From positions 1 through 59,414 of the IMG/VR virus record IMGVR_UViG_3300025009_000114: 59,414 bases of DNA, one strand, 5' to 3'. The notes beneath the pieces were generated by a model. It made no database searches, was not told where the DNA came from, and was given only the letters and a program-made list of their open reading frames with translations. The position numbers and the translations under genes are program-made. Shown here one piece after another: positions 2,908 to 51,712 of this stretch; positions within the stretch are counted from its first letter, which is position 1, and the number at the start of each line of letters is the position of its first letter. The DNA is from a virus (Duplodnaviria; Caudoviricetes).

Positions 2908-2988
2908 TCGGTTCAAAGAACAATTACAAATTGTAAAGTTGTTTTTCAACTTTTTGAGCATACAAAGTATGCGAATGGGGTTTTACAA

Positions 2989-3183
2989 ATGAGTGAAAGC
3001 AAAAGTAGTCCTTCCGGTGGTGCTAGTTTCTGTAGTCTTCTTACTGTCTTATTTATAGGATTAAAGCTAACAGGGTACATTACGTGGTCTTGGTGGTGGG
3101 TATTGTCTCCGTTGTGGATTTCTTTTATTATATTAATTTTAGTTATCATTGCGGTAGGTATTTTAACCAATTGGAGGTTTTAA
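2989..3183 (+). CDS. Small membrane protein
   Basis: LTVLFIGLKLTGYITWSWWWVLSPLW, two hydrophobic segments; a pattern common in phages. Confidence 0.75.
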   Translation: MSESKSSPSGGASFCSLLTVLFIGLKLTGYITWSWWWVLSPLWISFIILILVIIAVGILTNWRF

Positions 3184-3344
3184 CATGCAAAAAGCAATAG
3201 TAATAGGAACCCTGATAGCCGAAAAGAAAATCCCTTCCTACAAGATCCCCTGTAAGGTTCCTTTCGGATCTATCCTTCGAAAGGCTCTTAGCTCTAAACA
3301 GATTCCAGTTAATCGTGCTGGAAGGTCATAAGACCAGGAAGCCA

Positions 3345-3447
3345 CCTATTAGCCTCTGTAAGTAACAATCAGACTAAAAGGTTCTACCCTACGTGGTAGG
3401 TGCTGATCGTTGCTTACAGGTCAAATTAGACCCCTTCCTGGAGGTAT
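3345..3447. repeat. ~100-bp imperfect palindromic dispersed repeat, copy 1
   Basis: Shares CTGTAAG..CTACCCTAC..GATCGTT..AGACCCCTTC with 4655-4757. Confidence 0.55.
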
Positions 3448-3654
3448 TTTAATATGCCAATAAGTGAGCGAATAAACTTTGTAGTAATGTTGGTTGTATT
3501 TATAGGCATTCTTCTTTGTGCTACTTGCACTGAAGAGGGTGAAGAAAGTTAACTTCTATCGGAGCCTGTTAGATAACTAACAGGTTCTAATAGGTGTTAA
3601 GTTTCAAATGAAAGTGAAAAGGACTAAAAGCGAAACCTAATAGGAGGAAAAACA

Positions 3655-3858
3655 ATGAAATTGTTTTGTAAGTGCAATCAGACAGAAAGGTGGTTTGAAG
3701 AAGGGCATCCCCTCACAGGTGCTCAGATTTTACTCTGTGAGGTGCAAAAAGATCCTATCTTTCGAGGTGATGATTGTCCCAAGTGTAAGCTGTATTATTG
3801 GTATGATCCTTGGTATGAGAACATGATGTATGACCTGAAAGAAGCTAATAGGTGCTGA
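3655..3858 (+). CDS. Hypothetical Cys-containing protein
   Basis: AGGAGG SD; CxC and CxxC. Confidence 0.65.
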   Translation: MKLFCKCNQTERWFEEGHPLTGAQILLCEVQKDPIFRGDDCPKCKLYYWYDPWYENMMYDLKEANRC

Positions 3859-6691: not shown

Positions 6692-6925
6692 ATGACTGAA
6701 TGGTTCGGGATCGATACTGCTTTGGTTTTGTTAAACAGAGCAGAGAAGACAGGAGAGGGTGTAACTACCTTTAAGGGGTATGGCAGAAACCCTAGAGTAT
6801 TTGCAGCTAAGGTTGTTAGAACACCAACAGAAATGAAAGTGTTCATAGATAATAAATTCAAGAAGAGTTGTACTATTGAGAGTCAGGTAATTGATTTGCT
6901 TGTCGAAGAGGCTGAGAAATTTTAA
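6692..6925 (+). CDS. Hypothetical protein
   Basis: AAGGAG SD. Confidence 0.65.
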   Translation: MTEWFGIDTALVLLNRAEKTGEGVTTFKGYGRNPRVFAAKVVRTPTEMKVFIDNKFKKSCTIESQVIDLLVEEAEKF

Positions 6926-7780: not shown

Positions 7781-9692
7781 TTTTGAAAGGTGGTCTGCTG
7801 AGTATGAGAGATACGTTGCAGAAGAGGTGAGGATAAGACAAAGAGATTTTGAAGATAGATGTAGAAGAGAATATCTAGAAGGAACTCGTGCCCTTCAAGA
7901 ACCAATTCCGCAATTCAATTCAATATTCCAACAGCACGATAGAAACCAATCAGCACCTCGTTACACCTACCAACCAAACCAACCACAGGAGAATAATATA
8001 TCCATGAGTCCTCGCACTACTACGTCCAGCCCCACTGTTCATTGCCTTATTTGTAGTTCTGTTATTACTGACGAATACCTGAAGTACCAATATTACCAAG
8101 AAGAATATCCCGATATTCTGATAGGACCGTATTGTCCTACTTGCTTTCAAAATATCAGGGTCTGTTCGGGCTGTCAGAAACCTTTCACTAAAGATCATGG
8201 AATCAAGTATTACAAAAAAGGATTGTGGTACTGTGACGACTGTGCTTCTGACCTTACTACTTGCACTGTTTGTAATTCTATAGTGCATACAGTGGTTGAT
8301 ATTGATGGGGAAAAAGTGTGCCCTAGTTGTGTATCAAGCAAGTACTTTCATTGCAACTATTGTAATAAGTATCACAAGGCTGATCAGAATGTGTACAGAG
8401 ACGATGGTCGCCCTACAAGGGTTGGTGAGTCTTCTGACTCCGAACTGAACAAAGCTAAGTGGCCAACAGTATACTCAAAGTACAATGGACAACTGTGTGC
8501 TGAAGGATTCCGATCAGTTACAGCTACTATCAAACCCAAAGAGATAGTCAGATGTAAGAACTGTCAGACCCTGAAAGCAACTGATGACATGCAGACAGAA
8601 GAGTATTGCAAAGAGTGCTATTCTACTTTTAAGAAGTGCTCTATTTGCAGCAAAAAGCACCCTACAGTGCGTACCACCAAGATAGATGGTAAGACTACCA
8701 GCCTCTGTAAGAACTGTTTGTCTAGAGTCTCTACGTGCGATTATTGCGGAAAGCACACTAATAAGGTGCATACTATTAAAGGTGGTGTTAGCACCTATAG
8801 GATCTGTTCTGTATGTCATGATTCCTATCCTAACATCAACGAGTGTCCTATTTGCCTGTCACTTCAAGCAGGTATGGTAGGTGAGAATTGCATAATGTGC
8901 AGTCAGACCTACATCAACAACAAGTGTCATTGTGGTTCTGTACAGGATTTCAATGGCGATTGTAGGGCTTGTGGGGGCAGACAGGATACTGTCTACAATT
9001 ACTCAACTAAACCTAGACTCTTCTTTAATTATCTGAAAGGGGAAAGAGGAGAGTTGTTCTTTGGTATTGAAAATGAAATGACCTTTTCAAATGAAGATAC
9101 GATGAGGAAATCTTTAAAATCATTGTACAAGATGTTTGATCCTACAGTACTTCTCGCCAAGGGTGATGGGTCTATTAGTGGTCCTGGATATGAAGTAGTT
9201 ACACAACCAATGACTCTTAGCTTCTTTAATAAACTTAATGTAGCTGGTTGGTTTGGGTCTGCTGTTAGATCCTCTTCTTGCGGCATGCATGTGCATATGC
9301 AGAGAAAGTCTTTTATCTCTGAGGTGCATCTGTATAAGTTTATTAACTTTATTCACGATAACGAGAAGTTCTGTGACAAGATCGCTGGTAGAAGCTACAC
9401 CAATTACAATACCAAACTGGAGAATAAGCCTAGTAGGGCTGTTAAAAAGGGGTCTTCTTCTAGATACTGTAGAGTCAACACCAGTGGTGAGCACACCATA
9501 GAGATTCGTATGTTTGCTGGTTGTATCTCAGAGTTTGAGTTGAGATATCGAGTAGAGTTTCTTCATGCTTTGTGGATGTTCTGCAAAAGTGTTTCGATTA
9601 GTCAGTCGGTTTCCTTGGAAACCTTTAAGAAGTACGCACAGAATAACGAGAAGGTATACTATAACCTCAGTAAGTTCCTGCTTGGTGTATGA
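7749..9692 (+). CDS. Amidoligase (COOH-NH2 ligase family) with long N-terminal CxxC array
   Basis: FFGIENE, KGDGSI, GYEVVTQP, SCGMHVH, TIEIRMF; ATG 7749 follows GGAGAG. Confidence 0.85.
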   Translation: MPSDDTFRTFSFERWSAEYERYVAEEVRIRQRDFEDRCRREYLEGTRALQEPIPQFNSIFQQHDRNQSAPRYTYQPNQPQENNISMSPRTTTSSPTVHCLICSSVITDEYLKYQYYQEEYPDILIGPYCPTCFQNIRVCSGCQKPFTKDHGIKYYKKGLWYCDDCASDLTTCTVCNSIVHTVVDIDGEKVCPSCVSSKYFHCNYCNKYHKADQNVYRDDGRPTRVGESSDSELNKAKWPTVYSKYNGQLCAEGFRSVTATIKPKEIVRCKNCQTLKATDDMQTEEYCKECYSTFKKCSICSKKHPTVRTTKIDGKTTSLCKNCLSRVSTCDYCGKHTNKVHTIKGGVSTYRICSVCHDSYPNINECPICLSLQAGMVGENCIMCSQTYINNKCHCGSVQDFNGDCRACGGRQDTVYNYSTKPRLFFNYLKGERGELFFGIENEMTFSNEDTMRKSLKSLYKMFDPTVLLAKGDGSISGPGYEVVTQPMTLSFFNKLNVAGWFGSAVRSSSCGMHVHMQRKSFISEVHLYKFINFIHDNEKFCDKIAGRSYTNYNTKLENKPSRAVKKGSSSRYCRVNTSGEHTIEIRMFAGCISEFELRYRVEFLHALWMFCKSVSISQSVSLETFKKYAQNNEKVYYNLSKFLLGV

Positions 9693-49650: not shown

Positions 49651-51712
49651 TTAGCCAGCAATGATAACACTCTCTACAAGTGCTACTGGCTGAATTACTT
49701 CACGACCGTAGACCGAAAGTCCTCGCATATACTGACCGAAACTATCAGGAATCATTAAAGATTCGGTCTTGGTTAATTGCAGTGCGAAGGTAATAGCCTC
49801 TTTAGTTCCTGCAAGCGCATAAAACAACTCAGCAGTACCCTCAGTTGCATGATAGAGGTTATTAGTTTGAATGACCTTCATCCTGTCAATCATACCTACC
49901 ACTCCTGTTCGAAGAACACCAGTAGAATCCCCGGTAATATCAGCAGACTTAAGGTCACCTTTCTTCAGTCGAGCCACAGCCCAAGCTGGCAAAAGAACCC
50001 AACGATTCTCACTTGGGATATTTTGCTCATCAAGTACAACGTTCATATCAACAATAAGATCCGTTGCATTGTCAGAGGTAAGAGACACTGCATTAGATCC
50101 ATTAGAACCACCAGCAGCACCGAGTGCAATGTTAGACAGAACACCAGCGGTATTACCACGGTTGTTACTGTCAGCTTTGCCAACTACATAAGACAGTACA
50201 TCAGCATCAATAGCAATCTTCAGACGCTCACCAGCATCGGCAGCAAACTTATTCATCAGATCGAGATCAGTTTGAACTGCGTCAATGTCGTCGATTTTAA
50301 AAGACCAGCTCTTAGCTTCAGTGATGTTAAGGGTCTTGTTTGCTTTCTCAGGAACTTCGTAAGAAAGCGTACCACCGACAGTGTAATCGCTGATGGTGAT
50401 AGCAGGGATAGTACGGATAAGTACCTGATCTCCCTGACCTTTGCATAAATCTTAAAGATTTCGGACTATTACTTATCCTTTCGGATACTCTCTGTTTAGT
50501 CTCTGCTGCTTGCGTATATTATGTAATTCAAGTATATCTTGTATTAGTGAGTATTTCTTTTCGTGCATTATATAGGATCTTATTTTCTCCAGAAATGGCA
50601 CAGCAAATGAAGCGTCCCCATATCCAAGATTTCTTTCCCAATCGCACCAAGATCTTATAGAATAAATATTCCCCTTGAAGTCTCTTTTAAATAACTCTAA
50701 TAAATGCTTATCATCAGCACTCTGAGTAATTTTTAACCTCATTTCGTAGAAATCTTTATTCTCTCTTTTACTCAACTTTATACATCCATTTCCAGCTATA
50801 ACACCTGCAACATAAGACCAAGATAAGTGCTTTGGCATTTTTAACCATCTACTGTTTTTTCTTGAACACTGACAATAAGCCTTTAGTTCTTCGATAATAT
50901 TTTGTGAAATATCTTCAACATCTTTATGTTGATCTGATATCCATATCATATTATCAAGATGTGTAGCTTTTAATCTCATATGCTTTCCAATCCTGTTGAA
51001 AAGTATACGAGTTTCTTTGTCCCTCATAGTCCAAGTACAGGTAGAAGAGGTATTCTCACCGTCTTCTATTTTGTAGTACAAAGATCCAATATTATAAAAA
51101 TCTCTTAAGGATCTTATTACTTCAAAATCTTGATCGTTAGTTGCAGATTGTGTTAAACTTAATGTTACACTTACTCGTTGTTTTTCTGAAGTTCTAGTCT
51201 TGTAGAAGAATAGAGAAACACAACCATCAGTATCTACAAGACCTGCTAGATATTTGTTTAGTTGTTCTGAATGCACTCTGTTCTTTTTCAATTGACCGCT
51301 CAGAAGTTTATAAGCAAGTGTTGATGTGTTATACTTTGAAAAATACATAAGTAACTCCTGTGTTAATTTGGAGTCACACATTGCATCGAGTTTTACCTCG
51401 TTATTTAAGAGAGTTACGAGACCAAATTAGTTAATCTCGCCTTGATCAATGTGGACTATCATTTTATCTTTCGACTTTAGACCGTTTAGTCTCTGCGGGT
51501 GCTAAAAGCTTCCCTCGGATTTTACTCCGTTATTTAGGTCTAATTAAACTGATCATCAAGGTATTTTAATCAGTATTAGCGATCTCTCCAAATACAGTAG
51601 ACAGATAGAAGTTTTTTAACATCTTCGAGGACCATACAATAGGAGTAAATTTGCTAGTCCCATCAGATGCATAGTCTTTATATCCAGAGGTACGAGTTAC
51701 GCCATTAGCCAT
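49651..51712 (-). CDS. Major capsid protein; exons 51712-51568, 51446-51434, 50443-49651 (951 nt, 316 aa)
   Basis: GGAG SD; splice gives ...FTPIVWSSKMLKNFY...IANTD-YQGEI-KGQGDQVLIRTIP..., a P22/HK97-type coat N-terminal pattern; lies after the scaffold gene. Confidence 0.9.
50444..51433 (-). ncRNA. Reduced-core group I-like intron B (990 nt) with LAGLIDADG ORF in L6a
   Basis: P1 CGAGAU/GUCUCG with U.G; P3 ACUCUCU/AGAGAGU; P4 CGAG-GUAAAA-CUCG; GCAGAGACUA...AUAGUCC; P8 UAUCC-GAAA-GGAUA; terminal G. Confidence 0.88.
50473..51348 (-). CDS. Intron-encoded double-motif LAGLIDADG endonuclease / possible maturase
   Basis: YLAGLVDTDG and YVAGVIAGNG; ATG 51348 after AGGAG. Confidence 0.88.
   Translation of the reverse strand: MYFSKYNTSTLAYKLLSGQLKKNRVHSEQLNKYLAGLVDTDGCVSLFFYKTRTSEKQRVSVTLSLTQSATNDQDFEVIRSLRDFYNIGSLYYKIEDGENTSSTCTWTMRDKETRILFNRIGKHMRLKATHLDNMIWISDQHKDVEDISQNIIEELKAYCQCSRKNSRWLKMPKHLSWSYVAGVIAGNGCIKLSKRENKDFYEMRLKITQSADDKHLLELFKRDFKGNIYSIRSWCDWERNLGYGDASFAVPFLEKIRSYIMHEKKYSLIQDILELHNIRKQQRLNREYPKG
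51447..51567 (-). ncRNA. 121-nt minimal ORF-less group I-like intron A
   Basis: P1 ACUGAUU/GAUCAGU; P10 CCUUGAU/AUCAAGG; P3 UUAGACC/GGUCUAA; P4 CGGA-GUAAAA-UCCG; P6; GCAGAGACUA...AUAGUCC; P8 GUC-GAAA-GAU; terminal G. Confidence 0.85.

Follow-up and report, generated by a model that had tools for sequence, protein, structure and literature searches.

The virus record IMGVR_UViG_3300025009_000114 (Duplodnaviria; Caudoviricetes), analyzed here as one window that comprises the whole record of 59,414 bases and is rated 97% complete, has a major capsid protein gene divided into three exons by two compact introns of predicted group I type. Intron B carries an open reading frame (ORF) for a single-chain LAGLIDADG protein in which Asn187 takes the place of the metal-binding Asp in the C-terminal active site. 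Intron A has no ORF and lies 13 nucleotides (nt) upstream of B, and the two recur together in five lineages. We favor a joint reading of these observations, with a probability of about one half: the protein belongs to a mobile family of homing endonucleases, the Asn copy is impaired in cleavage, intron A hitch-hikes with B, and the RNAs splice themselves. Two other roles of the protein, as a splicing helper (maturase) and as a selected nicking enzyme, have to be weighed against this.

The split capsid gene and the open reading frame of intron B

The capsid gene has the following parts.

49651-51712, minus strand: major capsid protein gene (P22-coat-like), three exons and two introns
51568..51712, minus strand: exon 1, ATG at 51712; it ends in T 51568, which provides the U for the U.G pair at the 5' splice site of A
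51447..51567, minus strand: intron A, 121 nt, without an ORF
51434..51446, minus strand: exon 2, 13 nt (ATCAAGGCGAGAT)
50444..51433, minus strand: intron B, 990 nt, carrying the LAGLIDADG ORF
49651..50443, minus strand: exon 3

Exon 3 matches annotated major capsid or P22 coat proteins in 381 phage records (tblastn; best identity 36%). Exons 1, 2, and 3, when joined by script, form a 951-nt frame with only one stop, at its end. The joined frame aligns gap-free over both junctions with two intron-less relatives, L006 (65.8% identity) and L007 (62.5%), and with a Rhizobium phage capsid protein (40.2%). This agrees with the first-pass annotation of this DNA, which had correctly given both the 13-nt spacing between the introns and the intron-less site. 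Furthermore, in DNA contigs of relatives from public runs, the likeness to the window ends exactly at 50443/50442 and gives way to exon-like sequence; therefore, alleles without B and without A exist. A megablast search of the locus against the phage collection returned no match. We also noted a stop codon in the exon frame just past each 5' splice site (GAT TAA at A, 51567-51565; ATT AAC TAA at B, 51433-51425), and ribosomes should therefore halt at the intron edge.

The features of the ORF and of its start are these.

50473..51348, minus strand: LAGLIDADG ORF, 291 codons plus stop, single-chain two-domain type
51351..51377, minus strand: hairpin GTGACTCC / GGAGTTAC, read from the sequence, enclosing the Shine-Dalgarno AGGAG (51359-51355) of the ORF
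51223..51252, minus strand: first motif YLAGLVDTDG, residues 33-42, with Asp41 intact
50785..50814, minus strand: second motif YVAGVIAGNG, residues 179-188, with Asn187 (AAT, 50790-50788) at the metal-binding position

The longest frame (50473..51381, minus strand) has 302 amino acids from its first ATG. The ATG at 51348 sits 6 nt after the AGGAG and gives 291 amino acids, which is the length of the database entry P0002. The Pfam profile LAGLIDADG_1 (PF00961) matches two stretches of the ORF (E value of 7.2e-13, 49.7 bits against a cut-off of 23.1). Both stretches were above the cut-off in the search of the genome, and this profile search found no other LAGLIDADG gene in the 59,414-base record. 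An AlphaFold model built from 45 relatives has a predicted local distance difference test score (pLDDT) of 94.4 and a predicted template modeling score (pTM) of 0.91, and shows a pseudo-symmetric two-domain alpha/beta fold. Its best matches among the 167 found by Foldseek at E values of 0.001 or less are the single-chain meganucleases I-OnuI, I-SmaMI, I-LtrI, and I-PanMI, with E values down to 2e-13 and a TM score of 0.67. By sequence, I-PanMI was the only solved relative under an E value of 0.001 (1.1e-5).

Residues 1-27 (51267-51348), which precede the first LAGLIDADG helix, lie in a highly conserved stretch with invariant T8, L11, H26, S27, E28, Q29, L30, and K32. These N-terminal residues, about 27, occur only in the approximately 22 best representative clusters; weaker relatives begin at profile position 24-29.

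How unusual is the second motif? In natural enzymes the two metal-binding positions are D or E (PMC6294521). Each LAGLIDADG domain is responsible for cutting one strand, and a central metal is often common to both active sites (PMC3017599). Single-chain LAGLIDADG enzymes end each of their two motifs with an acidic residue, and the window protein departs from this at motif 2, with Asn187. The first motif is intact: Asp41 is D in all 45 aligned relatives. At the metal position of motif 2, 43 of the 45 have D and two have N, namely, the window protein and P0010. The first-pass annotation had described the two motifs in this way, and the alignment bears it out. Among 151 wider representatives, motif 2 has D in 129, E in 13, N in 3, R in 2, G in 1, and a gap in 3, so that D or E is found in 142 of the 148 with a letter there; motif 1 has D in 124, E in 15, N in 2, C in 1, and a gap in 9. 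Asn at the metal site is thus a rare but recurrent state, of the kind made by one G-to-A change.

Reduced introns and the conserved twin unit

To describe the RNAs we tabulated 27 distinct introns of this family from viral and metagenome contigs. The paired (P) and joining (J) segments of the two window introns read as follows.

51561-51555 and 51554-51549, minus strand: guide of intron A, P10 CCTTGAT and internal guide sequence GATCAG
51543-51537 with 51483-51477, minus strand: P3 of intron A; J3/4 TAAATAA at 51536-51530
51529-51516, minus strand: P4 hairpin of intron A, CGGA-GTAAAA-TCCG; P6 GGG 51514-51512 with CCC 51499-51497
51493, 51492, and 51491-51487, minus strand: P7 of intron A, G, bulged A, and GACTA, with TAGTC 51458-51454 plus C 51453
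51475-51466, minus strand: P8 of intron A with a GAAA loop; terminal G at 51447
51426-51423 and 51422-51417, minus strand: guide of intron B, P10 TTTG and internal guide sequence GTCTCG
51413-51408 with 50493-50488, minus strand: P3 of intron B, CTCTCT with AGAGAG; J3/4 at 51407-51401
51400-51387, minus strand: P4 hairpin of intron B, CGAG-GTAAAA-CTCG; P6 TGC 51385-51383 with GCA 50509-50507
51380-51377 with 50514-50511, minus strand: P6a of intron B, TGTG with CGCA; P7 50503-50497 with 50468-50463
50487-50474, minus strand: P8 of intron B; P9 hairpin at about 50461-50447; terminal G at 50444
50473..50514, minus strand: overlap of ORF and intron core, 42 nt, the last 13 codons plus stop, running through P6a', P6', J6/7, P7, J7/3, P3', and P8

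The helices are backed by covariation. P3 has 6 to 7 base pairs (bp) at fixed places in 27/27 introns, formed by 25 different strands, and of 698 pairings between mismatched P3 partners, only 3.9% attain 6 bp. The P4 stem has 4 bp in six pair types and carries a 6-nt loop in 27/27 introns (GTAAAA in 25/27). Since its strands are joined directly by this loop, there is no P5. P7 consists of G, a bulged A, and GACTA paired with TAGTC and C, and its compensatory variants GACTG/CAGTC and AAGACTA/TAGTCT were each seen twice. P6 and P8 covary too across the table. In an alignment of seven ORF-less introns, 95.9% of the cells pair, and 12 of 29 pairs change on both sides, which none of 500 shuffles attained; slid partners pair at 26-41%. 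The U.G pair is present in the 6/6 cells that have letters in this alignment. Within the window, A and B share a 21-nt block around P4 (2 matches against 0.03 expected) and a 12-nt block, and both blocks recur in the capsid genes of relatives. The introns also contain blocks that may resemble the classical P, Q, R, and S elements of group I introns.

The P3-P8 core with its P3/P7 pseudoknot is therefore present and supported by covariation. The P4-P5-P6 stack of group I introns is incomplete: P6 is present and P5 is absent. Neither intron has P2, and A has no P9. By their mechanism-defining features, A and B would be group I introns, but reduced ones, as the first-pass annotation had supposed. 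They escape the standard models. Rfam at the gathering score gave no group I match over the whole window, and at E values up to 10 the segment 50300-51750 gave no group I match and only chance matches (E values of 2.1-8.6).

The ORF sits in the P6 extension of B with its 3' end inside the catalytic core. This arrangement, which had been proposed before, is upheld when codons 50514-50473 (CGC AAG CAG CAG AGA CTA AAC AGA GAG TAT CCG AAA GGA TAA) are read against the family table. They supply CGCA of P6a', GCA of P6', GCA of J6/7, the G, bulged A, and GACTA of P7, AAC of J7/3, AGAGAG of P3', and TATCC-GAAA-GGATA of P8, and the stop codon of the ORF falls within the 3' strand of P8. As for the ribosome-binding hairpin, its CTCC...GGAG core is kept before the start codon in four orthologues of B.

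The two introns form a conserved unit. An ORF-less intron of 116-121 nt, an exon of 13 nt, and an ORF-bearing intron of 978-990 nt follow each other in five lineages: the window, L019 (with the near-identical L014, L020, and L022), L144, L145, and L146. In the window, exon 2 contributes its first 7 nt to pairing with the P10 guide of A and its remaining 6 nt to the P1 of B. The 13-nt exon is divided exactly, and both ribozymes can therefore fold simultaneously. Across the lineages the exon splits into a P10 of 5-7 bp for A and a P1 of 6 bp for B. The same exon occurs in L019, L144, L145, and L146 with compensatory changes, and the guides vary to match it; in L144, for example, the A guide TTCGT pairs with ACGAA and the B guide GTCTCT with AGAGAT. 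In 5/5 lineages both introns have the U.G at the 5' splice site, the terminal G, and covarying P1 and P10. The B proteins of the other four lineages all have Asp at the second motif; therefore, the pair does not depend on the Asn state.

Homing, splicing help, or nicking

We propose that the ORF is a member of a mobile single-chain LAGLIDADG homing endonuclease family that resides in compact group I introns, within their P6 extension, and that these introns may have colonized many sites of the capsid gene in one group of uncultured phages. The family appears to be selected as a nuclease, given the retention of acidic residues at motif 2 in nearly all close and wider relatives. Within the capsid gene its introns are found at numerous positions, a distribution that results from active homing. 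Among the relatives in public runs, some have an empty A/B site and others an intron at an upstream site, and one of the runs also contains the window's own DNA. Together, the two conserved Asp residues, the many insertion sites, and the empty and filled alleles point to homing as the main function of the family. The window protein has Asn in place of the metal-binding Asp in its C-terminal active site, and a normal double-strand break has therefore probably been lost: this copy could be inactive or could cut a single strand.

Intron A would have no means of movement of its own and would be a passenger of B, with which it may be inherited as one unit, since DNA 13 bp away is copied whenever a break at the B site is repaired. 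A lies 13 nt upstream of B in 5/5 introns of the B clade with DNA context, and A was not seen without B among the inspected loci. Three pattern scans that did not require a neighbor, together with L162, gave nine distinct ORF-less introns in seven lineages, and an ORF-bearing family intron was found in the same capsid gene for 9/9 of them, on contigs that are mostly short. The suggestion that A homes together with B is well supported by these figures, although the same pattern of co-occurrence fits a maturase acting in trans as well as it fits co-conversion. Finally, we suggest that the RNAs may splice themselves, possibly assisted by general host chaperones, and that two features would keep the ORF silent on the precursor, namely, the hairpin that covers its ribosome-binding site and the position of its end within the catalytic core.

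Several results weigh against this reading. Splicing of the capsid introns is deduced from sequence: a search of public runs turned up no RNA run containing the locus, and the contigs that we compared with it are DNA only. The minimum-energy fold of intron A (-20.4 kcal/mol) shows nested helices and is no better than that of shuffles (z of -1.1), and the introns are AT-rich, with a GC content of 0.33-0.37 against 0.43 in the exons. The lack of P2 and P5, the AT-richness, and the weak fold of A therefore leave room for a protein helper. Moreover, the ORF is not decaying. The window protein retains all 26 family-invariant columns. Compared with four orthologues, its proportion of nonsynonymous differences (pN) is 0.22-0.27 and its proportion of synonymous differences (pS) 0.77-0.86, the latter saturated; deeper Asp-Asp pairs have a pN of 0.21-0.23, slightly under that of the window pairs. 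Over all pairs of the five B-type ORFs with DNA, pS is 0.74-0.86 and pN 0.12-0.27, and with synonymous sites saturated in 9/10 pairs the ratio of the corresponding substitution rates (dN/dS) was not computable. Purifying selection has thus acted on the window ORF over most of its history. Hence, either some protein function is still selected or the Asn change is recent. The second Asn protein, P0010, is 59% identical to the window protein, and a tree joining both was not rejected (approximately unbiased [AU] test, p of 0.45), so that the Asn state could be old and maintained.

Three states common to P0002 and P0010 were considered as a sign that the two are sisters and were set aside: Trp168 is the family majority (32/45), and Glu112 occurs in 7/45. 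Asn187 is the sole state unique to the pair, and the overlap of their departing columns has a p of 0.036. A second protein search, with P0010, gave no further members of the B clade.

We consider it unlikely that the protein is a maturase, the role raised by the first-pass annotation. The protein would bind the reduced core of B and, in trans, that of A, and would be needed for efficient splicing of the capsid message, with nuclease activity kept or not; the Asn lineage would be a step from a homing enzyme to a dedicated splicing factor. Such a role would suit a core with a 4-bp P4 hairpin and a weak predicted fold, the company of an ORF-bearing intron that every ORF-less intron keeps, and the purifying selection that persists despite Asn187. 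The approximately 27 N-terminal residues could be read in the same way, being strongly conserved among proteins with different DNA targets and missing from weaker relatives. There are also precedents, in I-AniI and in a bacterial LAGLIDADG protein of Thermotoga neapolitana (PMC3984707; PMC2647301). However, the evidence from the N-terminal residues, the constraint, and the bare RNAs does not separate RNA binding from other roles, and co-conversion explains the co-occurrence of the introns equally. Both Asp residues are kept in 43/45 relatives and in the four other lineages with A and B. The ribosome-binding site is masked by a hairpin, and the end of the ORF lies in P7-P3'-P8, so that translation on the precursor would unfold the ribozyme. 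A bolder version of the idea is still harder to accept: introns of 116-121 nt without P2 and P5 could not fold alone, the family proteins would clamp the core via their N-terminal stretch, and the Asn187 lineage, perhaps with P0010, would be a nuclease on its way to becoming the first dedicated phage group I maturase, acting on two introns of the late gene with the highest expression.

An enzyme selected for nicking also seems improbable to us. With one site disabled, it would nick the intron-less site and still drive the homing of A and B, with less harm to phage replication. Single-chain LAGLIDADG enzymes use a separate active site per strand, the ORF is intact and constrained, and Asn recurs in P0010 and in 3/148 wider relatives. 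Nick-initiated homing in phages is said to occur in SPO1 and SP82. It is described for MobE (PMC2790892); nickases have been engineered from I-AniI and I-SceI, and that of I-AniI stimulates recombination at about one quarter of the wild-type level (PMC3017599). However, the published nickases alter a peripheral Lys or Gln and not the metal-binding acid, and a shared central metal is common, so that the loss of one acid may stop both cuts (PMC3017599). The history of the Asn proteins also argues against a new, selected activity. In the 12-protein B clade their end branches are 0.32 and 0.37, against 0.07-0.19 for nine others (P0013 has 0.39), and each departs at 14 of 139 clade-conserved columns, where the others depart at 1-7 (P0013 at 25). 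These long branches and departures look more like relaxed than new selection. That Asn187 holds the metal well enough for a fully active endonuclease, with no functional change, is very improbable, even though all other family-invariant residues are present, given that the metal positions are D or E in natural enzymes (PMC6294521) and that N is found in only 2/45 and 3/148 relatives. Plain impairment of a homing enzyme, without a new role, is our leading reading, ahead of the maturase and the selected nickase.

Relation to known systems and further insertions

Capsid-gene group I introns and a LAGLIDADG-like ORF in one of them (PMC3706429), LAGLIDADG maturases, including a bacterial one (PMC3984707), and homing in trans (PMC2790892) are already in print. 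I-OnuI, I-LtrI, and I-PanMI, which come mostly from fungal mitochondrial group I introns, share with the window protein a two-domain fold, a length of about 290 residues, and a group I intron as their home. They differ from it in several respects: the identity is only 13-20%, and the window protein is encoded in an intron of a phage capsid gene and has an extra conserved N-terminus of approximately 27 residues and Asn at the second metal site. The endonucleases common in phage introns are of the GIY-YIG, HNH, PD-(D/E)xK, and EDxHD types, and LAGLIDADG is not usual there (PMC3984707).

I-AniI, yeast bI3 and bI4, and the 23S-intron protein of T. neapolitana are likewise LAGLIDADG proteins within group I introns, and they exemplify a known route from nuclease to splicing helper (PMC3984707). 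In contrast to them, the window ORF stands free and has a ribosome-binding site of its own, masked by a hairpin, and nearly all of its relatives keep both acids. The closest parallel to the proposed passage of A with B is T4 MobE, which mobilizes the neighboring defunct I-TevIII nrdB intron in trans (PMC2790892). In T4 an intron unable to move is carried through co-conversion by the endonuclease gene next to it, as is proposed here for A. Unlike MobE, the helper here is intron-encoded, and the introns are 13 bp apart and paired in five lineages.

Among capsid-gene introns in print are those of mycobacteriophage LittleE, with a LAGLIDADG-like ORF, and lactococcal phage Tuc2009 (PMC3706429). Both are group I introns in a capsid gene, as here, and that of LittleE also has a LAGLIDADG-type ORF. 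However, those are single introns, and the LittleE ORF lies on the opposite strand, is I-CreI-like, and has 177 amino acids, whereas the introns described here are a P5-less mini-intron family with several members per gene and the ORF on the same strand.

Small self-splicing group I introns are usually cited at about 200 nt. The window introns share with the canonical ones (RF00028) the U.G of P1, a guide with P10, the P3/P7 pseudoknot, the bulged A and G-C of P7, and the terminal G. They differ in having no Rfam match, a P4 closed by a GTAAAA loop, and no P5 or P2, and intron A has only 121 nt. We did not find in the literature a description of the P5-less mini-intron family, of its multiple occupancy of one capsid gene, or of a conserved two-intron unit with a 13-nt exon; searches on the smallest and on P5-less introns were uninformative, and we make no claim of absence from print.

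A whole LAGLIDADG family is associated here with a pared-down group I ribozyme that standard models overlook, and a capsid gene can contain several of these introns. Three questions could be studied on the compact natural pair of A and B: the lower size limit of a group I intron that still splices, the way in which an ORF-less intron persists (as a hitch-hiker or with a borrowed protein), and the effect on a meganuclease of a natural change from Asp to Asn. There is also a consequence for annotation, as the capsid genes of such phages will be called as fragments unless the introns are recognized.

A search with a single protein for related loci gave L024 only. Five loci fitted a short-gap pattern for ORF-less introns; all of them lack a P4 complement and were rejected as chance matches. 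More than 118 loci matched a generic P7 pattern, and under a strict test the family P4 hairpin was absent from all the new ones listed. No ORF-less family intron was detected when bacterial and archaeal genomes were scanned.

Other capsid genes of the group show further variants. Over the window positions 51536-51620, a relative's contigs in runs X1 and X5 carry the 5' part of an L002-like upstream-site intron instead; since run X1 also has the window's own DNA, phages with different intron sets co-occur. L162 has an ORF-less family intron with a GTAATA loop at the upstream site (2722-2875) and, at the B site, an ORF-bearing intron of another protein clade (2925-3800), while its A site is empty. 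In L022 the B-type ORF has one extra base, giving a 204-residue product (P0014), and the near-identical L014, L019, and L020 are without it; an assembly error or a genuine frameshift could explain this. The upstream-site ORF-less intron of L019 keeps the ribosome-binding hairpin and the start codon of an L002-like intron, which looks like the deletion of an ORF. For this intron (6707-6879) and that of L146 (reversed, about 960-1100), we found no boundaries to satisfy together the U before the 5' site, the terminal G, and the reading frame, and their splice sites or activity are uncertain. L144 (reversed, about 230-1100) has an insertion right after capsid codon 2 with its own LAGLIDADG-like ORF (motif LALGDGYI) and a different-looking sequence, possibly an intron of another family. 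Finally, the capsid gene of L019 is interrupted again downstream, at about 8596-9300, by an insertion with a Cys-rich ORF of 208 amino acids (8659..9285), which makes at least four interruptions in one gene.

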